A DNA stretch of 45,689 nt from Spirochaetia bacterium. Lineage in GTDB: Bacteria; Spirochaetota; Spirochaetia; Treponematales; Treponemataceae. The translations under genes were made by a program, and so were the position numbers. Location: assembly GCA_900770075.1 (NCBI GenBank), contig CAAGIZ010000208.1, forward strand, positions 1 to 45,689, read 5' to 3'. The first letter of the stretch is position 1, and each line of letters begins with the position of its first letter. Below the pieces are notes generated by a model. It was given only the letters and a program-made list of their open reading frames with translations, was not told the DNA's origin and ran no database searches. Shown piece by piece: positions 3,794-16,149 of this stretch.

Positions 3794-3849
3794 ATTGTCT
3801 TATTTTGACATTTTATCATTATTTACAAAAAATTTATATGAGTGAGTTT

Positions 3850-5346
3850 ATGAAATACACAGTACTCGATTATCTTGAAGAAACTGCAGGGAAATTTCCA
3901 CAGAAAAATGCTTTTGCTGATGTTCAGTCGTCCGTAAACTGGAGTGATTTTGTTAAACGCTCAAAGGAACTTTCGGCAATCATTTCAAAATACTTTGAAC
4001 CGGGTAATGCCGTTCCCGTAATGATAGACAAAAGCGTGCGCACTCTGGAATATTTTTTTGCAGCCCTCTATTCAGGCTGTTTCTATTCCTATTTTGATGC
4101 AACTTTCCCGGACAGCCGCCTGAATTCCATGATTGAAACCCTGGGCGTAAAATACATAATCTGCGACCGCCGCTTTGAAAAAAAAGTTTCCGCACTCAAT
4201 GTAACGCCAATTTTTGCCGACGAACTTGAAAAACTTGCAGGAACGGAAGAATATTCGGACACAAGGCGCAAAAAGATTATTGACACCGATCCTGTCTATG
4301 CAAACTTTACCTCTGGCTCCACAGGAACTCCAAAGGCTGTTGTCGTAGCTCATCGTTCGGTAATTGATTTCATCACCTGCTTTACGGAAATTTTCGGCAT
4401 AACTTCAGAAGACAGCATTGCAAATCAGGCTCCCTTTGATTTTGACGTGTCCGTAAAGGATATTTTTTCCGGAGTGTTCACCGGTGCGACCGTTCATCTT
4501 GTTCCAAAAATGTTCTTCAGTTTTCCGACAAAACTTCTTGACTATCTTGAAGAGCGGGAAATCACCACAATCATCTGGGCTGTAAGCGCAATGTGCATTC
4601 TTTCAACTTTAAACGGCTTTGACTATAAGGTGCCTTCAAAACTGAATAAAATCATGTTCAGCGGAGAAGTCATGCCCTGCAAGCAGCTTGAAATATGGCG
4701 GAAATTTATTCCAAATGCAAAATATGTAAACCTTTACGGTCCTACAGAAATTACATGCAACTGTTCTTATTACATAATTCCGGACGGCACTTTACCTGAG
4801 TCAATTCCCATTGGAATTCCTTTCCCGAACGAGCGCATCATTCTTCTTGACGAAGACAATCATCCTGTTACAGAAAAAAATATTGAAGGCGAACTTTGCG
4901 TAAGCGGAACATGCGTTGCAATAGGCTATTACAATTCCCCGAAAACTGCCGAAGTGTTCGTTCAAAATCCTTCACAGCCTTGCAGATACGAACGCATTTA
5001 CAGAACCGGAGACCTTGCAAAATACGGCGATGACGGACTTTTATATTACGTCGGACGGAAAGACACCCAGATAAAGCACATGGGGCACAGAATTGAACTT
5101 GGAGAAATTGAGGGAGCTGTTTCAAAGCACGAACAAATCACAAGATGCTGCTGCGTATTCAGCGAAAACAAAATCACGGCTTTCTACACGGGAAGCGAAA
5201 CCGACAAAAAAGAAATCGTTTCCATGCTCCGCATAACGCTTCCTTCTTATATGATACCAAGCGACTTTGTTTTTATAAAAGAATTTCCGCTTACCAAAAA
5301 CGGAAAAATCGACAAAAAATCCCTTATGGAGTCCGTGAATGTTTGA
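3850..5346 (+). CDS. Stand-alone amino-acid adenylation enzyme (DltA-like)
   Basis: A-domain cores FTSGSTGTPK, FDFDVSV, NLYGPTE, YRTGDL, GRKDTQIKHMGHRIELGEIE, LPSYMIP, NGKIDK. Start placed at ATG 3850 (alternative 3838) rather than TTG 3805. Confidence 0.88.
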   Translation: MKYTVLDYLEETAGKFPQKNAFADVQSSVNWSDFVKRSKELSAIISKYFEPGNAVPVMIDKSVRTLEYFFAALYSGCFYSYFDATFPDSRLNSMIETLGVKYIICDRRFEKKVSALNVTPIFADELEKLAGTEEYSDTRRKKIIDTDPVYANFTSGSTGTPKAVVVAHRSVIDFITCFTEIFGITSEDSIANQAPFDFDVSVKDIFSGVFTGATVHLVPKMFFSFPTKLLDYLEEREITTIIWAVSAMCILSTLNGFDYKVPSKLNKIMFSGEVMPCKQLEIWRKFIPNAKYVNLYGPTEITCNCSYYIIPDGTLPESIPIGIPFPNERIILLDEDNHPVTEKNIEGELCVSGTCVAIGYYNSPKTAEVFVQNPSQPCRYERIYRTGDLAKYGDDGLLYYVGRKDTQIKHMGHRIELGEIEGAVSKHEQITRCCCVFSENKITAFYTGSETDKKEIVSMLRITLPSYMIPSDFVFIKEFPLTKNGKIDKKSLMESVNV

Positions 5347-6505
5347 CCTTGCACAAAAATTCGGTTCACCCCTTTACATTTTTGATTCACAGAAAGCAAA
5401 GGACAGGATAAATGCCATAAAAGGTCGCCTTCCAAAAAACGCAAGGCTCTGCTATGCAATCAAGGCAAATGCCTTTTTAGTTGATTCCTTAAAATACGAA
5501 GATTTGCTTTTTGAAGTTTGTTCACCGGGGGAACTTTCCATCTGCGAAGAAAAAAAACTTCCGCCTGAAAAAATCGTCTTCAGCGGCGTGATGAAAACTC
5601 AGGAAGACGTAAGCCGCGCATACAAGCTCAACGTAAACACCATAACGCTGGAATCCGTTACCCACTGTAAATACCTGGTCAATGCAGTCGGTCAGGAAAA
5701 AGAACACGCACAGGATGTTATAATCCGGCTGACAGGTAACAATCAGTTTGGAATGTTGGAAAAAGACGTAAAAAAGTGCATTGAACTTTTAAAGCCCTAC
5801 AAAAACATTCATATCCGGGGAATTCACTTCTTTACGGGAACTCAGAAAAAACTCAAAAAAATTGCAGAAGAAATTTCATTTATTGAAGACTTCTGCACAA
5901 AACTTCAAAAGGAAACCGGCATCACTTTTAAAAGCATTGAATACGGTCCCGGCTTAAGCTACGAATATTTTTCAAATCAGGAGCAAAGCGATAATTTTTG
6001 TGAACTTGAAGAATTTTCAAAACTCATAGCAAATTCAAATTATGACTATGTAATAGAACTCGGCCGCTATATTGCTTCCCCATGCGGAAAATACATTACG
6101 AAAATAATGGACATAAAGGGCGACGAAAAAAGCCGCTACATAATAATCGACGGCGGAATAAAACACATAAACTATTACGGCCAGATGATGGGAATGAAAA
6201 CTCCTAAGGTTCAGCACATAAAAAGCGGACTTAATGCAGAAAACTCAGGCGAAGAAAATACAGGCACAGCCGATTACACAATTGCTGGTTCCCTTTGCAC
6301 GACGGCAGACATCGTATTGCGCAAACTTACGCTGACTTCTCCCCGCATCGGCGACCTTCTTGTTTTTTCCGACATAGGAGCCTATTCCGTTACGGAAGGA
6401 ATCTACCTGTTTTTAAGCCACCCTCTTCCTGCAGTCGTGATGTTTGACGGCAAAAATTATTTAACCTTGAGAAAACCTCAGGAAACATATATAATTAACT
6501 CATAA
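5339..6505 (+). CDS. Fold-type III PLP-dependent decarboxylase (LysA family, BtrK/VinO-like)
   Basis: YAIKAN (PLP Lys), SPGEL, ELGRY, GSLCTTAD, GAYS. Overlaps the preceding gene by 8 nt. Confidence 0.85.
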   Translation: MFDLAQKFGSPLYIFDSQKAKDRINAIKGRLPKNARLCYAIKANAFLVDSLKYEDLLFEVCSPGELSICEEKKLPPEKIVFSGVMKTQEDVSRAYKLNVNTITLESVTHCKYLVNAVGQEKEHAQDVIIRLTGNNQFGMLEKDVKKCIELLKPYKNIHIRGIHFFTGTQKKLKKIAEEISFIEDFCTKLQKETGITFKSIEYGPGLSYEYFSNQEQSDNFCELEEFSKLIANSNYDYVIELGRYIASPCGKYITKIMDIKGDEKSRYIIIDGGIKHINYYGQMMGMKTPKVQHIKSGLNAENSGEENTGTADYTIAGSLCTTADIVLRKLTLTSPRIGDLLVFSDIGAYSVTEGIYLFLSHPLPAVVMFDGKNYLTLRKPQETYIINS

Positions 6506-6525
6506 ATTGACAAAAAGGAAAGAAA

Positions 6526-6747
6526 ATGGACGAACTTTTAGACATTCTTAAAGAACTTAAACCGGATGTAGATTTTGAAACAGAAAAATCGCTGATCGAC
6601 AATGCAATCCTCGACTCATTTGACATTGTCCAACTTGTAACGCAGCTGAAAGATGCCTTTGACATCGACATAACACCGGCTGACCTTATTCCGGAAAATT
6701 TCAATTCCGCAGAAGCTCTTTGGGCGATGATTCAGAAGCTTCAGTAA
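6526..6747 (+). CDS. Acyl/aminoacyl carrier protein (DltC-like)
   Basis: 73 aa, acidic; ILDSFDIV phosphopantetheine Ser motif; PENFNS C-terminal motif; AGGA SD. Confidence 0.9.
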   Translation: MDELLDILKELKPDVDFETEKSLIDNAILDSFDIVQLVTQLKDAFDIDITPADLIPENFNSAEALWAMIQKLQ

Positions 6748-6772
6748 ATGCAGGTGCAATGATTTTTAACAA

Positions 6773-6815
6773 AAAAAAACTGATTTACGAGTCCGGCTCA
6801 CAAATCAGTTTTTTT
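6773..6815. terminator. Bidirectional intrinsic terminator between convergent carrier-protein and MBOAT genes
   Basis: AAAAAAACTGATTT ... AAATCAGTTTTTTT inverted repeat with A and T tails. Confidence 0.8.
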
Positions 6816-6831
6816 ATTTTACAATTCTTGG

Positions 6832-8385
6832 CTAATACTGCGCATACATAAAGCCTGCATCGCCAGAACTGAAAGTAAAAGAAAGGATTATAATAATCAG
6901 AAGCACATAGTATGCTCCCCATCTGAAAGCTATGTTCTTTTTTTGAATTGCTGCATATACATCTATTTTATTCTCTCTTAAGAGGCTTACGACAAAAATT
7001 ATAAAAGTACCAATAAAAACCAAAATTATATGAGATTCAAAATTTGATATCGGTCCCAAAAAAAGTTTAAGATATTCTTTTGAAGCAAGCAGTAGAGGAT
7101 TTCCAAAATTAACAAAGGTATCTTTCAGATAGATAAAACTTTGCCTGACATCTGCAATCCTGTCAAAATACCAGCCGATATTTACAAGAATAAAAGTTCT
7201 GACAATCCTGAAAATGTGAAACCATTTAGCATTTTCGTTTATATGCAAAAATCCGTTTAATTTTTTGAAAGCAGGTTTTAAAATATCACTCAAAGCGATT
7301 AACAAACCGTTGTAAAGTCCCCAGACAAAAAAATGAAGTTCCGGACCATGCCATACACCAACAAGCATAAAAACAACTATATTTGCAATACAGGCAGGTA
7401 AAACCCGTCCAAAATGCTTTCCGAAGTGATTTGTACACCATTTTCCAAGCTTAGTCATTCCTTCAGTCAAAGCAAGAGGATAAAAGACATAATCACGCAT
7501 CCACTGTCCGAGGCTTATATGCCACCTCTGCCAGAAATTAGCTATGCTTACAGAAAAATACGGCTGCTTGAAATTCGGCTGCATTTTTATGCCAAAAAGT
7601 TCTGCAACTCCAAGGAACATATCTATTCCGCCGGAAAAATCTGCATACTGATAAAGTGAATACATCAAAATAGCAAAAAGAATTACACACCCCGGAATCC
7701 CCTCATAGTTCTTGTCTAAAATTGATGAAATTCTGGTAACAAGAAGGTTTGCCACGACATATTTTTTCATTGCCCCAAAAAGAATGAGCATTACTCCGTG
7801 CTTTATGTTTTCAAAATCAAATTCATGCTCTTCTTTCAGTTGTTTTCCTTGAATTCCATAACGGTTAATAGGTCCCATTATAAGCTGCGGGAAAAACGAA
7901 ATGAAAAGGAAAAACCTCGCAAAATTTGTTTCCCTTTCAATCTTGGAATTATATACATCCATGAAATAACCGATTGCCTGAAGCGTATAATAAGAAATTC
8001 CAAGAGGTAAAAGAAGGGTTTTTGAACCTATTAACACCCTCCAATATTTTAGATAGAAAAGAATTCCAATATTAAGAAAAAGCATTCCGACAAGAACAAG
8101 CCTCTTTTTGTTTTGGGTCTGCTTTTTCATGTTTTTAAATGTTTCTTTATCGACCAAAGCCTTTTTTTGCACCAAATTTTCGTTAAAATGAGAAACTGCA
8201 CTTGCTGCAATAAAAGTCACTAAAGAGGATCCCGTTATAAACAGAAAATTACCGATTCCGCTGAAGGCATAAAAAACTGCACTGGAACAAAGAAGACATA
8301 TCCATTGAATTTTTTTTGGACACAGATAATAAACAAATAGACTCAGTAGAATAAAAATAGCAAATGTATTAGAAAGTAATGACAT
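6832..8385 (-). CDS. MBOAT family O-acyltransferase (AlgI/DltB-like)
   Basis: LPLGISYYT, FFPQLIMGPI, YADFSG, NFKQPY, FWQRWHISL, catalytic GVWHG; C-terminal FMYAQY. Confidence 0.92.
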   Translation of the reverse strand: MSLLSNTFAIFILLSLFVYYLCPKKIQWICLLCSSAVFYAFSGIGNFLFITGSSLVTFIAASAVSHFNENLVQKKALVDKETFKNMKKQTQNKKRLVLVGMLFLNIGILFYLKYWRVLIGSKTLLLPLGISYYTLQAIGYFMDVYNSKIERETNFARFFLFISFFPQLIMGPINRYGIQGKQLKEEHEFDFENIKHGVMLILFGAMKKYVVANLLVTRISSILDKNYEGIPGCVILFAILMYSLYQYADFSGGIDMFLGVAELFGIKMQPNFKQPYFSVSIANFWQRWHISLGQWMRDYVFYPLALTEGMTKLGKWCTNHFGKHFGRVLPACIANIVVFMLVGVWHGPELHFFVWGLYNGLLIALSDILKPAFKKLNGFLHINENAKWFHIFRIVRTFILVNIGWYFDRIADVRQSFIYLKDTFVNFGNPLLLASKEYLKLFLGPISNFESHIILVFIGTFIIFVVSLLRENKIDVYAAIQKKNIAFRWGAYYVLLIIIILSFTFSSGDAGFMYAQY

Positions 8386-8394
8386 TTTAAATCC

Positions 8395-9708
8395 TTATAA
8401 TGCAACAAAATGCTGCGAAGCTTCGTTAGTTCTGACCCCATTAAGACTGGCAGTCACCTTTATCTTTCCGCTCTTACCTTTAGGAAGTTCTATAAAAGTA
8501 TCAGTCGTCTGTGTTTTCAAGATCTCTTCCTTTCCGTCATAAAAAACTGATACATCATAACGAATGCTTTCCATATCAACGGCAGGATTCACCATTGGCG
8601 TAATTGTTACCGCTTTTTTGTTCTCTGTAGGTTTTATTACAAGTCCAAAAATTCTGGCTTCCTGTGTTTTGATTTTTTCTGCATAGGAGTCATGAAACAT
8701 TTCCTCTTTGGGAACATTGCCGGTAAAATACTCGCACATGACCTTTGTATATTTATAGACTCCCTGAGCACTTAAATGATTGTCATCATGAAAATCCTCG
8801 TCTAAAAGCCTCAGGTATTTTTCTTTTGCAAGATTAAAGTCGTAGTATTCAAAACCCCGGTCATTACAGAATTTTTTTACAAAACTGTAATACTCATCAT
8901 AGTTTCCTTTTTCTGCAAGATAAAAATCTGAACATGGCATGGAATACATTGTAAGTTCAATGCCGTGTTCTTTGCAAAGTGCAATTATTCTGTCAATATC
9001 ATCCTTCCATTCATCACTTATCTTCCCTATCTGAATAGGACCTTCATCATAATAATTTGAAAAAGTACCGTTTTTTACAGGTCTTTTATCAAGAAGACAG
9101 CCTTTTCCGTCATAATCAGCATCTTTGTCTTTGTAAACGTAATTGAAATAATCACCGTTAAAGAAAGATTTGTACCTTGCTGCAAGATCTTTTGGATTGA
9201 GGCTCATGTGCTTGTCTTTTCCAATCGGAAGAAGTGAATTGATGTAATACTTAGGAGTAGACATTGTGCGGTAATAGTCAAATTTTATCTTCGGATCCCG
9301 AATATAATGGGCAATTGAGTATTCAGATTTAAAACCTTTTTTTTCTTTTACCGGCTGGTAAGTTGCAACAGCAAAATCGAGTTCAAGAAAAACCCTTTCA
9401 ATTTTGTGGAGTTTTACCGCCTGTCTTAAAACTGCATAAGTTCCGCCTATATGCTGTCCTGCAGAACCTGTGGAAAAATTATTCTTTTTCCATATTTCGT
9501 CTGCAACCTTTGGAGTAATTCCATGGCTTACGTGAGATGCACCGCAATAAAGAATTTCAACATTATCCTGCTCAAACAGTTCGTTCATCCAAATTCTTGT
9601 GTAAGCACTGGTTTCATCCCTGATTAAAAAAGCAAGGACTGTAGTGATTATAAAAAAGACAGCAATAAACAATGCTATCTTAACCGGTATTCTGACTTTG
9701 TCAGACAT
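8395..9708 (-). CDS. Membrane-anchored SGNH-fold protein (DltD/AlgJ-like partner of the MBOAT)
   Basis: N-terminal hydrophobic anchor, block I CGASH (GxS), block V FHDDNHLS (DxxH); directly upstream of the MBOAT. Confidence 0.7.
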   Translation of the reverse strand: MSDKVRIPVKIALFIAVFFIITTVLAFLIRDETSAYTRIWMNELFEQDNVEILYCGASHVSHGITPKVADEIWKKNNFSTGSAGQHIGGTYAVLRQAVKLHKIERVFLELDFAVATYQPVKEKKGFKSEYSIAHYIRDPKIKFDYYRTMSTPKYYINSLLPIGKDKHMSLNPKDLAARYKSFFNGDYFNYVYKDKDADYDGKGCLLDKRPVKNGTFSNYYDEGPIQIGKISDEWKDDIDRIIALCKEHGIELTMYSMPCSDFYLAEKGNYDEYYSFVKKFCNDRGFEYYDFNLAKEKYLRLLDEDFHDDNHLSAQGVYKYTKVMCEYFTGNVPKEEMFHDSYAEKIKTQEARIFGLVIKPTENKKAVTITPMVNPAVDMESIRYDVSVFYDGKEEILKTQTTDTFIELPKGKSGKIKVTASLNGVRTNEASQHFVAL

Positions 9709-9801: not shown

Positions 9802-11037
9802 CTAGGACTGCTTTTCTAGAATATCCATAAGAATCCTGTATACTTCAGATGAGGCTTTTCCCCTATTCTCCCAGGCTTCATCTCTTATCCGGTTTCTTGC
9901 AGCTTCCAGTTCAGTGCTTTCAATGGTCTTGTCGATAATGCTTTTTATGCCGGAAAAATCTTCTCTCTTTAACTGAACTCCAATTTTCCCAAGAATCTGC
10001 ATTTCCCATAAAGGTTCTTCCAGCCAGTCTATGTCGTAAGGTGATTTGTCAAAATTTGTATCCGCATAGATAAAAGGCCTGTCAAAGACAAGCGCATAAT
10101 CAAACATTACCCCGGAAAAATCAGTAATCATTATGTCAGCATTTTTCAAAACTTCAAAATTGTCGTTGTCGTAATTCCATTCAAAACAGGCATATTTTTC
10201 CTGAAGCGGTTTTAAAATATGCTGTTCGCTTACAACAGACTGGGGATGAGGCCGCACAATAACCTTGTAGCCAGTATTTTTCAGTGCATTTAAAAACTCA
10301 TCACCGAATTTAGAAAGAATGCTGCTTTTTCCCCAGGAAGGTGCAACAAGGACAATCTTTTCGCCTTTTTTTTGTGTGTTCGGCGACTCATCAAGCCGTT
10401 TTTTCATGGCATCAAGATAAGTACAGCCTGCAGCAAAAAACTCTTTTTGTTTTATGGAAGGACGAAGCTCTTCAATCTTTCTCATGGAAGAAAGCTGATT
10501 TATTCCTGTTCCCAAAACCACATCGTAATGGTCAAGACCAAACATTCTGTAACCCGCCAAATCTGAAACTGAATGAGGTATGTGAACATAAGTTTTTACA
10601 AATTTGCTTCTCTTCCATTGATAGACATCGAGCCCAGGTGTCGTTGCAAGCACTATGTCGGCATGCAGAAAATTGAGCTTTGCAAACCCCTTGTTTCCTT
10701 CGCCGATGAATTCTGTCTCTACAAATTTGTAATCCTGAGACAACGCAGGATCGTCCTTGCTCTGGGTCAGATACAATATTTTAACGCCGTGGTTCTCAAA
10801 CTCATCGCAAACAGGCTTAAAAACATTCCAATAACGCTTGTGATCGCTAAAGACAACTATCGAAACAGTTTTTGAATCGGATCCCCCTTCTTTTTTTCCA
10901 CCGGAAAGCAGAAACTTAACTTTCAAGAACAGAGCCCTAAAACCAAAGGTCGCAGCCGCAGCAATTCCTATAAAAAGAGAAAAAAGCATACTTCCCGTAC
11001 CAGGGTCAATGTAAAGCGGAAGAAACTGCAAAGCCAT
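9802..11037 (-). CDS. CDP-glycerol:glycerophosphotransferase (TagF/TagB)-like protein with an N-terminal YIDPGTGS membrane helix
   Basis: VLVAPSWG, VRPHP and ADIMITDFSGVMFDY motifs typical of the family; His in VHIPHS. TAATG overlap with the upstream gene. Confidence 0.8.
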   Translation of the reverse strand: MALQFLPLYIDPGTGSMLFSLFIGIAAAATFGFRALFLKVKFLLSGGKKEGGSDSKTVSIVVFSDHKRYWNVFKPVCDEFENHGVKILYLTQSKDDPALSQDYKFVETEFIGEGNKGFAKLNFLHADIVLATTPGLDVYQWKRSKFVKTYVHIPHSVSDLAGYRMFGLDHYDVVLGTGINQLSSMRKIEELRPSIKQKEFFAAGCTYLDAMKKRLDESPNTQKKGEKIVLVAPSWGKSSILSKFGDEFLNALKNTGYKVIVRPHPQSVVSEQHILKPLQEKYACFEWNYDNDNFEVLKNADIMITDFSGVMFDYALVFDRPFIYADTNFDKSPYDIDWLEEPLWEMQILGKIGVQLKREDFSGIKSIIDKTIESTELEAARNRIRDEAWENRGKASSEVYRILMDILEKQS

Positions 11038-13775
11038 TATTTTACATCCCCAACATTATTTTCTTTCCACTGCAAAAGAGGAATCCAGTTTTCAGGAATA
11101 AAGATGTCATCTTTTACAAACCATCCTCTTTTTTCATCAAGGGTAAACTGAGTCTTCCTTAAAAGCTGATCAGCATGATGCTCGCCGTTAGAGAGTGGGA
11201 AAAGAACTATACCGTTGTACCCCCCCCCTTCAATTTTTTTCCGCACAAGTTCTTTGCCAGTAAATGGATTTACCTTTACTGCTTCCGATATGTTTTCCAG
11301 TGCAAGAAGAGGAACATCAGCATTAGTCATAAAGGCATAATCATTTTTCAATTCAGACTTAGAACCAAAATCCTTGAACAAAAGAAGCGGATTGTAGGCT
11401 GCAGGAATTCCTGGATTTTCAAAACTGCTAAAAGCATCTGTCTTAACTGCTGCACCGTGGTCAGCAACGATGATTATTCTTGAATTGTCGTAAACATCAT
11501 TTTCCTTCAGAAAATCCAAAAACTTTGCAACCTGTGTAAGGGCGGCGGCATTAACCTTGTAATGTGACTGCTCAAAACCAGCTTTTTCTTCTGAAATTCT
11601 CAGCAAATCATCAGTCAGGTTGTGGGGTTCGTGAGGAGTATCCGAATCAATAAAAAGGTAATTGTCCGTTTCTGAAGAAAAGTCGGTCTGCTTGTCCAGA
11701 TAGTAAAGACTTGAGAAAATGTTGTAATAGTTTCTGTCGTCCCTCTGGTCAAATGCTATGCAGAGCCTGTAGAAAGTTGAACGCAGCGGCGGATAAAGGG
11801 TTTGCAGAACCAGAAAGTTTCTTATCTCTTTACGGCAAACCTTGTCAGCCTCATTGTTTACAACCCCGCCTTTCATACCGATTTCCTTAAAATAACAATC
11901 AGTATATTTTCCGAAAGTTGAATAAGCCTTCATCTGAGGATATTTTTCAAAAGGAGTCAAATCCTGTTCGTGAGCATAGTTGCACCATGGAGGGTCAGAA
12001 ACGGTAACCGAAAATCCTGCATCCTCAAAAATTTTAGGAAGCATCAGAATTGCCTCGTTATGTTTTTCTCTCAGAAGCTCACTTCTTCTCACGTTCATTT
12101 CCGAAGGAGAATACTCGTAGCCACCCATCATTGCAGGAGCCGCAAGAGAAGTATGGGTCGAAAAACTCAATGTATTAGGGTAATAGGTAAAGCCAGAAAA
12201 AGATTTCTTTTTTTCAGGGTATTCATCAAGAAATTTAGGAAAATAGGAACTTATTGCCCTGTCTAAAAACAAAACGATTACGTTTTTCCTATTTTTTGAA
12301 AGATGATAGATTTTTTCAAATTTTTCAGGGCTGTTCGTATCGGAAGAAGAAACAATGCTTTTTTCGTGGTTTTCACGGTGAACAGCAAAGGCCTTTTTTA
12401 TGTAATTTGTTTTCGTTATGCCGAAAGCGACTTCTGCCAGAACGATGGAAAATATACAGACATTCAGAATGGAAATTTTCTTCATTCTTGAAGCCAAAAC
12501 ATAAACGGCAAATGCCGCAGCAGGTACAAGCAATGGCAAAAAAACAAAGAAAGAAGAAAAATTCTTCAATACTTTGTCATTCTCAAGGGTAAACCCTACG
12601 CTTAAATTTCCGTAGGCATATTTAAAAATGTAGACGTTGGCAAGTGCACATGCAAGCAGGATAAAAAAAAGTCCCGGTAAAACCCGCTTTACTTTTTCGC
12701 CAAACATCCTGTAAACCGCACCCGGCCAAAAGACAAAAAAGCCTGCAAAAACAAAAAAAGAAGACCATATATAGCTTACGGGACTTTCCGTATCTCCCAA
12801 AAAGGAAAATTCAACAGGACTTGAAGCGATGATACTTGAAGAAAGCGTAAATCCCAAAAGAACAGCCAGAGCAGTTCCAGAAAGGGCAAGCAAAGGATAT
12901 CCAGAAAGAACAGTTTTTTCATCTGTTTCAAAACGCATAAAAAAACGTTTGTATAATAATGGAAGAAAAGTAACAAAAAGCGAAAAAACTACAATGCACA
13001 GTTTTTTTGCCGGATTCCCATGCCTGGAAAGTATGAACAAGGTAACAAGCCAGCACAGAAGGCTTATGGCACCATGCGCTATTCTTCCCGGATTTTTCAT
13101 TTTCATAACAATATTCTTAAATAACGAAAACGTGTTATTCAAAATCCAGTATATAACCAGTCCGCTGGGAGAATTGTACAAGAGAACAAGAAAAATCACG
13201 GCAACAACATAAAGCTGTGCCTTCTCCCTGAAAGGAGCTTCTTTCGTATAGATTGCACCGCTTACAAAGTTAATCAGCGTCATCAAAACGGGAAGAATGT
13301 GAATTCCGAAAACAAAGGACCCCAGTTTTATCGAAAAAAACTCATCAGGGGCGCCAAGATCACTAAAAATCCAAAAACTTGCCCCTCGAAGAGCCTCATT
13401 ATTGCTTAGATAGTGATAGGCTGCAATAAAAAAAGGAATTTCAATAAGGATTGAAAGAGAACTTCTCAGAACATAAAGAGGATGATAGTTATTCTGCCTG
13501 TAATACTCAGAAAGCATCATAAACTGCTCGTCACCCTTAAAAGTCTTTTTTATTCTTTTAACACGGAATTCAAGAGCTTTTGCAATTTTCCGTTCCTTTT
13601 CCTGTAGACGATCGGCAATGTTGTAAAGAGGGAGTGCCAGAAAATTTATAGCAAGGCTTACTCCAAGAACCGCCCCCATAACACCGATTGAACTTATTTT
13701 GTTAAGGATAAAGTTAAACACCCAGTCTACAATGGTTTCAATTGGGGAAATAATGACATAATATAAAAAATTCAA
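11037..13775 (-). CDS. Fusion of a YidC/Oxa1-like domain, extra TM helices and an alkaline-phosphatase/sulfatase-superfamily (LtaS-like) domain
   Basis: N-terminal ALPLY...YYRQNNYHPL...IEIPFF...SFWIFSDLGAPD...ILPVLM...PSGLVIYW. C-terminal NVIVLFLD, STHTS, TPHEP, IIVADHG, TNADVP. TTG start with GAGG SD. Confidence 0.8.
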   Translation of the reverse strand: MNFLYYVIISPIETIVDWVFNFILNKISSIGVMGAVLGVSLAINFLALPLYNIADRLQEKERKIAKALEFRVKRIKKTFKGDEQFMMLSEYYRQNNYHPLYVLRSSLSILIEIPFFIAAYHYLSNNEALRGASFWIFSDLGAPDEFFSIKLGSFVFGIHILPVLMTLINFVSGAIYTKEAPFREKAQLYVVAVIFLVLLYNSPSGLVIYWILNNTFSLFKNIVMKMKNPGRIAHGAISLLCWLVTLFILSRHGNPAKKLCIVVFSLFVTFLPLLYKRFFMRFETDEKTVLSGYPLLALSGTALAVLLGFTLSSSIIASSPVEFSFLGDTESPVSYIWSSFFVFAGFFVFWPGAVYRMFGEKVKRVLPGLFFILLACALANVYIFKYAYGNLSVGFTLENDKVLKNFSSFFVFLPLLVPAAAFAVYVLASRMKKISILNVCIFSIVLAEVAFGITKTNYIKKAFAVHRENHEKSIVSSSDTNSPEKFEKIYHLSKNRKNVIVLFLDRAISSYFPKFLDEYPEKKKSFSGFTYYPNTLSFSTHTSLAAPAMMGGYEYSPSEMNVRRSELLREKHNEAILMLPKIFEDAGFSVTVSDPPWCNYAHEQDLTPFEKYPQMKAYSTFGKYTDCYFKEIGMKGGVVNNEADKVCRKEIRNFLVLQTLYPPLRSTFYRLCIAFDQRDDRNYYNIFSSLYYLDKQTDFSSETDNYLFIDSDTPHEPHNLTDDLLRISEEKAGFEQSHYKVNAAALTQVAKFLDFLKENDVYDNSRIIIVADHGAAVKTDAFSSFENPGIPAAYNPLLLFKDFGSKSELKNDYAFMTNADVPLLALENISEAVKVNPFTGKELVRKKIEGGGYNGIVLFPLSNGEHHADQLLRKTQFTLDEKRGWFVKDDIFIPENWIPLLQWKENNVGDVK

Positions 13776-14051: not shown

Positions 14052-14804
14052 TCATCCACCAAACACTCTCTGAGCCTCCTCCAGACTCTCCAAATTCCCA
14101 ATGTCGTGCCTTTTCCCCGGCATAAGCCAGGCATGCACGGTCTTTTCCCTGCAAAACCAGGAAATAAAGTCGCCGGGTGCATCCGTTCCGCATGGAATTT
14201 TTCCCTCTGCGTCTTTTGTACAGGCTTTTTTTATAAAAGGCAAATCTTCCTTCCTGTAAACATAAAATGGAGGTACCGCCCAATGACTTTCAGGTTCCGC
14301 CGGTTTTTCCTGCATCTTTAGAACCCGGTCATCGCTGTCAATTACAGCAACCCCAGTCCGCCTGAGCCTTTCCCGGCTTTCCTCAAAATGTCTCATTATG
14401 CAGGCAGATTTTTTTTCATTAAAATAATCCACAAAGCCCTTCAGAGAAAAGTCCAGAATATTATCCCCCGCAAGAACCAGAACATCCTCATTTAAAGCAC
14501 ATTTTTCAATTGCAAAAAGTATGTCACGGACAGCCCCGATTCGGTTTTCATTTTCCGTAGAACCGTCGTCAATCACAGTAACAGCGTGCTTGAAAGAACG
14601 GTTGTTTTTCCATTCTTCAAAAATTGTAACAAATTTATGGTTAGAAACAATAATGTGCTCATCAATTCCGTCAATACAATCTATGTCGTCAATCAGCCTG
14701 TCCAAAATAGTGGTTTTTCCAACTTTCAGCAGGGGTTTTGGAAAATTTTCAGTCAAAGGATAAAGCCGGGTGGCATAGCCTGCAGCAAGTATTATGGATT
14801 TCAT
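14052..14804 (-). CDS. Sugar-1-phosphate nucleotidyltransferase
   Basis: ILAAGYATRLYPLT..PKPLL, LAGDN, EKP and DIG motifs. Confidence 0.88.
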   Translation of the reverse strand: MKSIILAAGYATRLYPLTENFPKPLLKVGKTTILDRLIDDIDCIDGIDEHIIVSNHKFVTIFEEWKNNRSFKHAVTVIDDGSTENENRIGAVRDILFAIEKCALNEDVLVLAGDNILDFSLKGFVDYFNEKKSACIMRHFEESRERLRRTGVAVIDSDDRVLKMQEKPAEPESHWAVPPFYVYRKEDLPFIKKACTKDAEGKIPCGTDAPGDFISWFCREKTVHAWLMPGKRHDIGNLESLEEAQRVFGG

Positions 14805-14828
14805 TTTTCAACTCCAGATTGATTTTTT

Positions 14829-14965
14829 ACGGGCGTTTCCCCTCACATCCGTTCGGGACCGCTATGTCCGCCCTTCGCTTTGCGCTCATTCAGGAGATTT
14901 CTGAGTTTCCTTCGCAAACTCAGAAATCTCCTGAACGCCTTCGGCGGGGCTACCAGCGCTAACGC
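14829..14965. repeat. Structured intergenic element, copy A (four-way junction in a Flavo-1-like frame)
   Basis: ACGGGCGTT...TCC-GCCC-TTC-GC(tttgc)GC-TCA-[perfect 20-bp stem 14889-14935]-CGCC(ttc)GGCG-GGGC-TACC...AACGC. Confidence 0.8.
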
Positions 14966-14973
14966 AAACTCCG

Positions 14974-16149
14974 TCAGTTTATTCCGTCTGCTGTCTTGCA
15001 GAAAACAATGTTAAACCGGGAAGTAAGTTCCGGAAACCTCTTTAAATATTCAGACCGTATTTTCGCTTCCACAGCGACTTTTTTTGCAGGATCCACAATA
15101 GCCATGGCACAGCCGTTAAAGCCGGCACCGCTAAAGCGTCCGCCGTAAATTCCATCTGTATCTTCCATTATATCCTGCAAAACTTTCAATTCATCGCTTC
15201 CAGTTTCATATTTTTCTATGGAAGACCTTCCGCTTTCAAAAATCAGCCTGCCGAACTCTTTCAAATCTCCGCTCTGAAAAGCCTTAACACCTTTTTTTAC
15301 CCGCTCATTTTCCGAATAAAAATGATCAGCCCTCTTTGCCCAGTTGGCAGGAAGCCTGTCCCTGTACTGCAAAAAAACACCGTAAGGCACATCCCTCAAA
15401 AAAGAATCAGCGAATTTTCCGTATTCAATATGGGAAAAACCTTTTAGAGCATAGCTGGCAGCCTTGCACTCATCCACCCGCATATTATAGGCAGAACTGG
15501 CAAGTTTTCTTTCCAACCCGGAAAAAATCACCGCAATTTCAAAATCCGGCATAGATTCCGGGATTTTTATCAGTTTTGCAGAATCAGTTTTTGTGTCCAG
15601 ATAAAGCAGGTTGTTTTTTCTGGAAAAAATTTCGCAGCTTTGATCCAGCTTGCCTACATTTACGCCAATAAAATTTCTCTCTGCATCCAGAGCAAGGTTT
15701 AAAAGTTCTACAGAAGTAAGGTTTATGTCGTTTACAAAAGCCAAAGCTTTTAGATATGTTAAAAGCACGCTGGCAGAAGAAGAAAGTCCTCCCCCCAAAA
15801 CAGCACCCGAAACAACCCCCTTAACACCTTTTGTCAGGATGTATGATTTTTTTAACACGTAAGCGGCTGCAAAAAGATAATCCGCCCAGGTATACTGTCT
15901 TTCATACTCTTCGTTGAAATTTCCTAAGGCAGAGCCTTCAAAATTTTCAGAATAAACTTCTACTTCACAGTTATCTGCCTCAAAAAAAGAAAATTTTGTT
16001 CCCTTGTCAATTGCAAAACCAGTAACAAGCCCCAGCTGGTGATCTACATGGGCACCTAAAGGGCAAACCCTGTAAGGACAGAAAAAATCATGAACTTTTT
16101 CAGCATTTTCATTATTTTTGATAAATGACTTTATTTCTTCTTTGGACAT
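14974..16149 (-). CDS. GHMP sugar-1-kinase, galactokinase family, most like plant galacturonokinase
   Basis: PYRVCPLGAHVDHQ, GGGLSSSAS, GKLDQ and GGRFSGAGFNGC motifs. Confidence 0.8.
   Translation of the reverse strand: MSKEEIKSFIKNNENAEKVHDFFCPYRVCPLGAHVDHQLGLVTGFAIDKGTKFSFFEADNCEVEVYSENFEGSALGNFNEEYERQYTWADYLFAAAYVLKKSYILTKGVKGVVSGAVLGGGLSSSASVLLTYLKALAFVNDINLTSVELLNLALDAERNFIGVNVGKLDQSCEIFSRKNNLLYLDTKTDSAKLIKIPESMPDFEIAVIFSGLERKLASSAYNMRVDECKAASYALKGFSHIEYGKFADSFLRDVPYGVFLQYRDRLPANWAKRADHFYSENERVKKGVKAFQSGDLKEFGRLIFESGRSSIEKYETGSDELKVLQDIMEDTDGIYGGRFSGAGFNGCAMAIVDPAKKVAVEAKIRSEYLKRFPELTSRFNIVFCKTADGIN

Follow-up and report, generated by a model that had tools for sequence, protein, structure and literature searches.

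The subject of this analysis is a pair of overlapping genes in a 45,689-nt stretch of DNA (the window) covering contig CAAGIZ010000208.1 (assembly GCA_900770075.1) of a Spirochaetia bacterium of the family Treponemataceae. One gene encodes a 912-amino-acid (aa) protein in which a YidC-like membrane domain is fused to an LtaS/EptA-like enzyme, the other a 411-aa protein made of a short YIDPG membrane peptide and a TagF-like phosphotransferase, and together they very probably belong to a system by which small phosphate or phosphonate groups leave the cytoplasm and reach surface sugars. An earlier sequence-only reading had described the fusion and its TAATG-overlapping partner; both open reading frames (ORFs) are present, and all the motifs it quoted are present in the 912-aa protein (AINFLALPL at 42-50, SSLS at 105-108, STHTS at 539-543, TPHEP at 713-717, and ADHG at 771-774). 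The features of the two genes are the following:

11037-13775 (-): YidC-like::LtaS/EptA-like fusion gene, 912 aa, TTG start (ORF and profile matches)
13101-13775 (-): YidC-fold core, aa 1-225, five membrane helices and a cytoplasmic coiled coil (structural match to 3wo7)
13644-13646 (-): Asn44, where the groove of housekeeping YidC has Arg/Lys (alignment)
12924-13100 (-): variable two-helix linker, aa 226-284 (conservation, and helices in the model)
12351-12923 (-): five-helix membrane domain of the LtaS/EptA/PbgA type, aa 285-475 (PbgA 6xlp alignment and loop charges)
11040-12293 (-): outward-facing alkaline-phosphatase-superfamily catalytic domain, aa 495-912 (D505, T542, H715, D772, H773 and structure)
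12150-12152 (-): Thr542, predicted nucleophile (invariant, 257/257)
11035-11039 (-): TAATG stop/start overlap of both genes, one shared base (sequence)
9802-11037 (-): YIDPG-peptide::TagF-like gene, 411 aa (ORF, profile and structure match)
10993-11013 (-): YIDPGTG motif, aa 9-15, candidate covalent shuttle through Tyr9 (invariant, 116/116)
10930-10992 (-): weakly hydrophobic membrane helix, aa 16-36, then a basic stretch (sequence, hydrophobicity estimate)
9823-10875 (-): TagF-like (PF04464) cytoplasmic phosphotransferase domain, about aa 55-405 (H152, H155, RPHP 262-265, D306 and S308 invariant)

An assembly artefact is ruled out as the source of the fusion by intact copies in the single-contig genomes G015, G040 and G074 and by abundant full-length relatives: among 8000 scored candidates, 1667 were relatives of the 912-aa protein, the best 120 being mostly full length. 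In some assemblies (region L070:13363-16057) fusion copies are broken into pieces, which may reflect assembly errors or decay. Promoter and terminator scans gave chance-level counts (21 vs 19.4 and 8 vs 7.3).

According to an AlphaFold model built from an 80-row alignment (mean predicted local distance difference test score 91.5; predicted template modelling score 0.86), the 912-aa protein begins with a YidC core, which a two-helix linker of variable sequence connects to an entire LtaS/EptA-type enzyme with its five membrane helices. Residues 1-225 of the model matched Bacillus halodurans YidC (3wo7) with Z 17.1 and a root-mean-square deviation (rmsd) of 3.0 over 199 aligned residues, and the profile scores agree with this fold (PF02096, 78.5 bits for a cut-off of 35; TIGR03592, 91.3 for a cut-off of 84.3), supporting the YidC-like N-terminus proposed before. 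Asn44 aligns with the groove Arg of Escherichia coli YidC, and the loss of this residue extends to the whole family, with Arg/Lys at that position in 0/257 members (the query and 256 proteins of 820-1050 aa, selected by length from 267 fetched), while the position is Lys in 19/19 housekeeping YidC copies. The positive charge of the groove is important for insertion by YidC. Column conservation overturns the view that this part of the protein is degenerate, as it is the best-conserved region of the fusion (mean 0.67 vs 0.49 in the catalytic domain; conservation reaches 95% in 44/225 core columns and 0/59 linker columns); judged from this conservation, the YidC part is specialised, not decayed. 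Compared with the YidC/Oxa1/Alb3 family (PF02096; 3WO7, B. halodurans YidC2; 3WVF, E. coli), the fusion shares the fold of residues 1-225, the coiled coil and the PSGLxxYW helix, but lacks the groove charge, has GCLP replaced, is without the periplasmic P1 domain, displays invariant polar residues of its own (S40, Y51, Y120, N169, Y176, N213, and S217), and is joined to an enzyme and additional to a housekeeping gene. Indeed, the source genome contains four PF02096 matches, three fusions and one 577-aa yidC located on a separate contig (C172) in the context rnpA-yidD-yidC-jag (gene names read from translations), which excludes the fusion as the sole yidC and provides the separate housekeeping copy that the sequence-only reading had called for. 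The fusion scored far under the cut-off with all PRK01318 models; with the wrong context and no full-length equivalog score, it is not the housekeeping YidC.

The C-terminal part of the fusion was assigned to the alkaline-phosphatase superfamily on structural grounds, since its PF00884 score (23.3 bits) is below the cut-off of 25. The catalytic domain matched sulfatases, LtaP and YejM with Z about 20, and LtaP, LtaS, MCR-1 and EptA with Z 18-20, the correspondence of residues being by motif and not by superposed coordinates; the top Foldseek rows for the fusion were PbgA, MCR-1 and EptA. Full-length PbgA (6xlp) aligned over model residues 285-912, with a high rmsd (14.3) as the placement of the domains differs. 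Loop charges over the 257 sequences alternate, except at the short loop between transmembrane helices 6 and 7, and place the catalytic domain outside. D505, T542, H715, D772 and H773 are invariant (257/257), in agreement with the metal ligands and the candidate Thr nucleophile of STHTS recognized earlier; by comparison with LtaS and EptA, Thr542 is presumably the nucleophile. Formylglycine sulfatases carry a Cys/Ser-x-Pro-x-Arg nucleophile motif, which was not found in the 257 sequences, where Thr542 is invariant and the neighbouring residues variable. Hence the fusion of a YidC domain with this enzyme fold stood up to analysis, although the earlier domain reading had left unnamed the segment aa 285-475, which is the enzyme's own five-helix membrane domain. 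LtaS/LtaP, EptA/MCR-1 and PbgA/YejM share with the fusion the five membrane helices, the outer alkaline-phosphatase-fold domain and the Thr nucleophile, at 11-15% identity. Unlike them, the fusion enzyme invariably comes with a cytoplasmic loader and a YxDP peptide; LtaS, EptA and their kin use bulk phospholipid as donor and need neither.

The 411-aa partner (closest named relative labelled T. berlinense, 99%) scored 57.1 bits with PF04464 (cut-off 22.1) and gave a weak match (E 7e-4) to the structure of Staphylococcus epidermidis TagF, in accordance with its assignment as TagF-like. It shares with the CDP-glycerol glycerophosphotransferases TagF/TarF (CDP, cytidine diphosphate) the conserved His motifs, H152, H155 and H264 being kept in 116/116 aligned partners, and differs from them in that it falls far under the TarF equivalog cut-off (17.7 bits vs 550), has neighbours that point mostly to aminoalkyl phosphate or phosphonate donors, and not to a supply of CDP-glycerol for teichoic acid, and begins with a YIDPG membrane anchor. 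This anchor is the fourth part of the system, overlooked in the sequence-only reading. YIDPGTG is invariant in 116/116 partners, and the helix that follows probably lies with its N-terminus out and its C-terminus in; its hydrophobicity was estimated against seven rough controls, one of them badly windowed, and is weak evidence.

Elsewhere the same segment occurs as a free peptide of about 70 residues, mostly with a signal-peptide-like leader ending just ahead of the Tyr. A pattern scan of metagenomes returned at least 119 stretches, and the 80 loci listed comprise 21 TagF fusions, 56 free peptides and 3 chance matches, motif invariance being by construction in this set. Among the free peptides listed, the residue before the Tyr is Ala in 48/56 and 42/56 passed a crude signal-peptide rule. 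Tyr1 and Asp3 alone are constant across all architectures, so that the Tyr is the sole fixed hydroxyl of the peptide; Thr or Ser as carrier is disfavoured by the variability of positions 5-8. The loose YxDP-peptide rule applied to the YidC-TagF loci described below found only two matches in the 2.35-Mb source genome, both of them TagF fusions. No Pfam family matched more than one of 21 peptides, no usable feature match came from searching the Atlas for the peptide region, and a search for shorter proteins returned 48, mostly on short contigs, and revealed no free peptides. Treponema copies of YIDPG-TagF have merely 2-8 residues ahead of the Tyr, and those of one spirochaete family (L065, L066, L071, L072, L074, and L075) a long leader ending right before it. 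At L078:2164-7289 and L129:529-6833 the peptide adjoins VTC-domain and DUF4956 genes and no TagF, NoeA or sulfatase-like gene was recognised, possibly a third loader class based on polyphosphate.

The fusion and the TagF-like gene are tightly linked, as had been anticipated. The latter was detected in 36/56 loci of fusion relatives, directly adjoining the fusion in 31 (many loci end short), and in 21/28 loci of at least 16 kb. Among 121 spirochaete genomes the TagF-like family is present in 22; the fusion profile (E 1e-30) matched 68, namely these 22 TagF-carrying genomes and 46 with only weak, housekeeping-type matches at the N-terminus (G082 was assigned on reading its locus). In a second bacterial class (200 genomes, one unscored) both genes occur in 7 genomes and a TagF-like match alone in 2 more, which carry YidC-TagF fusions; all these counts include related genomes. 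The fusion is often multi-copy, and the TagF-like gene mostly single in spirochaetes; at L198:5895-14262 three tandem fusion paralogues lie behind a single TagF gene. Contigs C133 and C11 of the source genome carry opposite ends of one nucleoside triphosphate (NTP)-transferase/pyridoxal phosphate (PLP) gene, so a single locus there probably comprises the other two fusions of this genome and its second YIDPG-TagF gene. The 419-aa gene after the C11 fusion is presumably CotH-like.

Alternative arrangements of the same parts were also found. In G082 a split operon encodes a transferase (611 aa), a peptide with a leader and YLDP (59 aa), a TagF-like protein (370 aa) and a YidC-like protein (224 aa), together with a cytidylyltransferase; the fully split loci are L061, L128 and L142. 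A YidC-TagF fusion exceeds the cut-offs of both PF02096 and PF04464 and belongs to the same TagF subfamily as the partner; its search in 201 genomes returned 11 matches including the query, the other 10 being 9 fusions and one housekeeping locus without peptide, and no such fusion was found among the plasmids searched. The YxDP peptide adjoins 10/11 YidC-TagF fusions, which were found without the motif pattern, and a profile-detected transferase gene adjoins 7/11, while at L207 the peptide is fused onto the transferase itself. Since four pairwise fusions (YidC-LtaS, YidC-TagF, peptide-TagF, and peptide-LtaS) exist besides the split form, the parts can be taken as one machine. The groove Lys/Arg is retained in 11/11 YidC-TagF fusions, so its loss, earlier seen as a mark of repurposing, is not required for it.

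The metagenome scan also pointed to a second type of loader. Among the matches listed, 25/56 free peptides lie beside a 460-aa protein, which is NoeA of Sinorhizobium and Ensifer, and 24 beside alkaline-phosphatase-fold genes. In these rhizobia the segment separating nodL from noeA encodes a 71-aa YLDPGTGS peptide, just upstream of noeA; a protein search for NoeA loci found the peptide in 7/7 examined of 65 plasmid records (three of the seven are near-identical rhizobial copies, and one peptide reads YLDA). The Asp, Thr and Asp equivalents are all kept in 20/20 aligned enzymes, a set of 17 of the 24 peptide-linked enzymes, the window protein and two others, with 7 omitted as truncated or divergent, and NoeB matches the profile of the peptide-linked enzymes with E 2e-30. 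NoeB at L201:5405-7066 (+) has its own YIDP behind the first hydrophobic stretch. In NoeA a methyltransferase domain was clear in fold searches and a kinase domain shows DxxxxN and Asp motifs, this last assignment following the available text of PMC9758233. nodL-noeA-noeB and Lani_1193-1195 thus resemble the fusion system in having the same YLDPGTGS peptide ahead of noeA (Lani_1193 is, from its size, probably the YxDP peptide), and differ from it in that the loader is a kinase-methyltransferase and a dedicated YidC was not seen: among the matches listed, YidC-like genes occur at 20/26 TagF loci and at 0/25 metagenomic NoeA-type loci (11 of them at least 6 kb), with 0/7 on plasmids, the profile being weak on YidC-TagF-type domains, some of which it may have missed. 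The conserved three-gene neighbourhood was noted in PMC9758233, the available part of which neither suggests a shuttle nor connects the genes with YidC or TagF.

As regards the cargo, LicC/PntC-like cytidylyltransferases, phosphoenolpyruvate (PEP) mutase and phosphonopyruvate decarboxylase adjoin many loci. Neighbours over cut-off include these last two, a PntC-aminotransferase fusion and EutH, and those under cut-off NTP-transferase/CobD-like fusions and a PhnS2-like binding protein. Based on these genes the donors look mostly like aminoalkyl phosphates or phosphonates, which displaces the polyol or sugar phosphate suggested earlier. Queries for PEP mutase and phosphonopyruvate decarboxylase found no match in the source genome (89% completeness), and an NTP-transferase/class I PLP enzyme lies between its other two fusions; its donor would be an aminoalkyl phosphate. 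Groove-Arg loss as a fit to cationic cargo was rejected, as L204 keeps the Lys beside an NTP-transferase/CobD-like gene and L200 is without it beside phosphonate genes and an alcohol dehydrogenase, which suggest a neutral group. Behind the split operon of L061 (4260-8322, -) lie an ABC transporter, a PhnS2-like binding protein and a permease with a weak LicD-like C-terminal match, suggesting import of a phosphonate donor. These loci have the LicC/PntC-like cytidylyltransferases, PEP mutase and phosphonopyruvate decarboxylase in common with the Lic (phosphocholine) and Pnt (CMP-aminoethylphosphonate; CMP, cytidine monophosphate) pathways, for which the four-part module is a candidate for the post-activation steps, called unknown in PMC6697681.

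The dedicated YidC seems to have been recruited twice into the system. In a 51-row tree, with long branches and thin outgroup sampling, the YidC domains fused to LtaS fall together with the split ones in a single clade (100/99), at whose base stands a 525-aa YidC that keeps the Lys, and the TagF-fused domains group with the sole Bacillota housekeeping YidC included. A single origin, as one clade, was rejected (approximately unbiased test, p-AU 0.003) on 38 rows, after 13 near-redundant rows had been dropped, for a group named after viewing the first tree. The 525-aa protein (L098:1220-5831, -) has a periplasmic domain and the groove Lys, and adjoins a PbgA/YejM-like gene (DUF3413), a TagF-like gene and the peptide.

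Starting from the folds, conserved catalytic residues, co-occurrence and alternative fusions described above, a mechanism can be proposed in which confidence is high for the overall function and about evenly balanced for the carrier, a peptide Tyr, as DltX and PatA use a Tyr in their shuttles. The four parts would be a cytoplasmic TagF-like loader, a YxD(P) microprotein that spans the membrane once, a YidC paralogue reserved for the system and an LtaS/EptA-like transferase of Thr type that faces outward. A LicC/PntC-type cytidylyltransferase would provide a CDP- or CMP-activated head group; in the source genome the NTP-transferase/CobD-like gene on C133/C11 probably serves this step, with CDP-ethanolamine or CDP-aminopropanol as the product. 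The TagF-like domain would then join the head group to the peptide Tyr in an activated aryl phosphodiester; the YidC groove would carry the short loaded N-tail outward, turnover needing also the return of the tail; and Thr542 would accept the group for delivery to a surface glycan or glycolipid. A single loader would serve several fusion paralogues, each with a different acceptor. Both loader types, TagF-like and NoeA-type, would yield a phosphodiester, and the Lys/Arg groove of one YidC lineage would suit an acidic peptide tail. The relay imagined in the sequence-only reading is hence supported in its loader, its outward transferase and their tie to a YidC, and amended in its carrier, which it left unnamed and for which the YxDP peptide is now the best candidate. 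A Tyr shuttle on a membrane microprotein has a precedent in DltX and PatA (PMC12148441, in the part available). More tentatively, and with somewhat less than even confidence, the system may represent a third route by which bacteria modify surface glycans across the membrane, in which a recyclable microprotein with an N-terminal Tyr phosphodiester, shuttled by YidC, replaces the lipid carrier and interchangeable loaders (TagF-like for CDP/CMP donors, the NoeA kinase-methyltransferase for methyl phosphate) feed Thr-type transferases.

Several points weigh against the peptide-Tyr carrier. The Tyr would face out and the loader lies inside, so that the tail must cross both ways, which is the weak point of the proposal, and we know of no case of YidC running in reverse. 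No YidC-like gene was found in the DNA covered at four TagF loci (L085, L130, L134, and L148), and a dedicated YidC is evidently not needed by every peptide system, because none was seen at NoeA-type loci. A docking role would account just as well for an invariant N-terminal Tyr. The donors of LtaS and EptA are lipids, and the fusion retains the five-helix domain that binds them. The kinase fold of NoeA was not seen in our fold tests, since the fold searches were filled by the methyltransferase domain, the N-terminal profile matched no solved structure, the comparison with a choline-kinase-like neighbour was unsuccessful and Atlas returned unnamed clusters only; the assignment relies on motifs and on the available part of PMC9758233.

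That five-helix domain is shared ground with the best surviving alternative, rather unlikely in our estimate and the nearest to the idea of the sequence-only reading, in which the TagF-like domain loads a membrane lipid, the YidC fold scrambles this lipid to the outer face and the LtaS/EptA-like enzyme takes it as donor, much as EptA does with phosphatidylethanolamine; the YxDP peptide would then do no more than dock loader to transferase. E. coli YidC scrambles lipids in vitro according to the available part of 10.1101/2023.09.01.555937, and the absence of groove charge throughout the fusion clade (0/257) also fits. However, should lipid scrambling be common to all YidC proteins, another reason is needed for recruiting a dedicated copy twice, and a fixed Tyr right behind the predicted cleavage site, kept with two unrelated loaders, is left unexplained.

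The YidC paralogue might instead serve biogenesis only, as the system's own insertase or chaperone, acting a single time to insert the peptide or put the complex together, the head groups crossing otherwise. We consider this improbable, as all paralogous transferases have their own YidC domain (3/3 in the genome), the conservation of this domain above that of the catalytic domain suggests use in every catalytic cycle and no other transporter is recurrent in the loci. Counted in its favour are the free peptide, which matches the leader-loop-helix-basic-tail build of M13 procoat, the Lys/Arg retained by YidC-TagF fusions and the NoeA-type loci that do without a dedicated YidC. M13 procoat is a YidC substrate (PMC7618853, in the part available). 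Least probable of all is a hydrolase, or an LtaS-like polymerase acting on bulk phospholipid, independent of a TagF-like enzyme that modifies glycan in the cytoplasm: sulfatases and phosphonate monoester hydrolases are among the top structural rows, tied with LtaP, and the TagF-like gene is absent in 7/28 loci of at least 16 kb, but the nucleophile is Thr and not the Cys/Ser of the sulfatase motif, fusion and TagF-like gene co-occur exactly at the genome level and the peptide was found fused once to each enzyme.

With the peptide Tyr as carrier, the system would work like the MBOAT-SGNH acyl relays DltABCDX and PatAB, which also combine cytoplasmic activation, a membrane step, a microprotein Tyr and an outer transferase (PMC12148441, in the part available). 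The likeness is one of function only: there is no homology, the Tyr is N-terminal, the cargo would be a phosphodiester and the membrane part has an insertase fold without known catalytic residue. The peptide shows the N-terminal YxD(P) motif and not the C-terminal FxYxxF and MBOAT partner of the DltX type. The system is real, widespread and uncharacterised, and each of its enzyme domains is a known fold. In the literature searched, with subscription papers and bioRxiv supplements outside the search, neither the fusion nor the motif nor the system was found described, and no known system with this set of parts came to light. Thousands of members are labelled plain YidC or CDP-glycerol glycerophosphotransferase, which keeps the system hidden, and the microprotein family, without a Pfam model, is often omitted from annotation. 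The analysis offers candidate genes for the route of activated phosphonates and aminoalkyl phosphates to surface glycans, a step called unknown in PMC6697681, and would tie an Oxa1-family insertase into a biosynthetic pathway, apparently twice. If true, the proposal would fill in the transfer step that is missing from phosphonate and phosphoethanolamine tailoring in spirochaetes and gut anaerobes. It would also give noeA and noeB, which determine host range in nodulation, a function that can be tested in a genetic model organism.

Regarding the rest of the window, a complete Dlt-like acyl relay (3805-9708) lies next to the YIDPG-TagF gene:

3805-5346: adenosine monophosphate (AMP)-ligase of the Dlt-like relay
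5339-6505: PLP decarboxylase of the Dlt-like relay
6526-6747: 73-aa carrier-like ORF with LDSFD, Dlt-like relay (no Pfam match at 1e-5)

Its MBOAT protein ends in FMYAQY, similar to the FxYxxF shuttle motif, and a DltD-like protein is also present. A functional tie of the fusion to this MBOAT/SGNH pair was discarded as local synteny only, the two genes being near fusion relatives in 10 and 11 of 56 loci. Directly upstream of the fusion (14052-16149, -) a nucleotidyltransferase and a galactokinase-like GHMP kinase are probably for sugar salvage; they were rejected as a donor supply, as the kinase was found again in one other locus only. Positions 19072-43332 hold an ordinary spirochaete cluster for chemotaxis and flagella.

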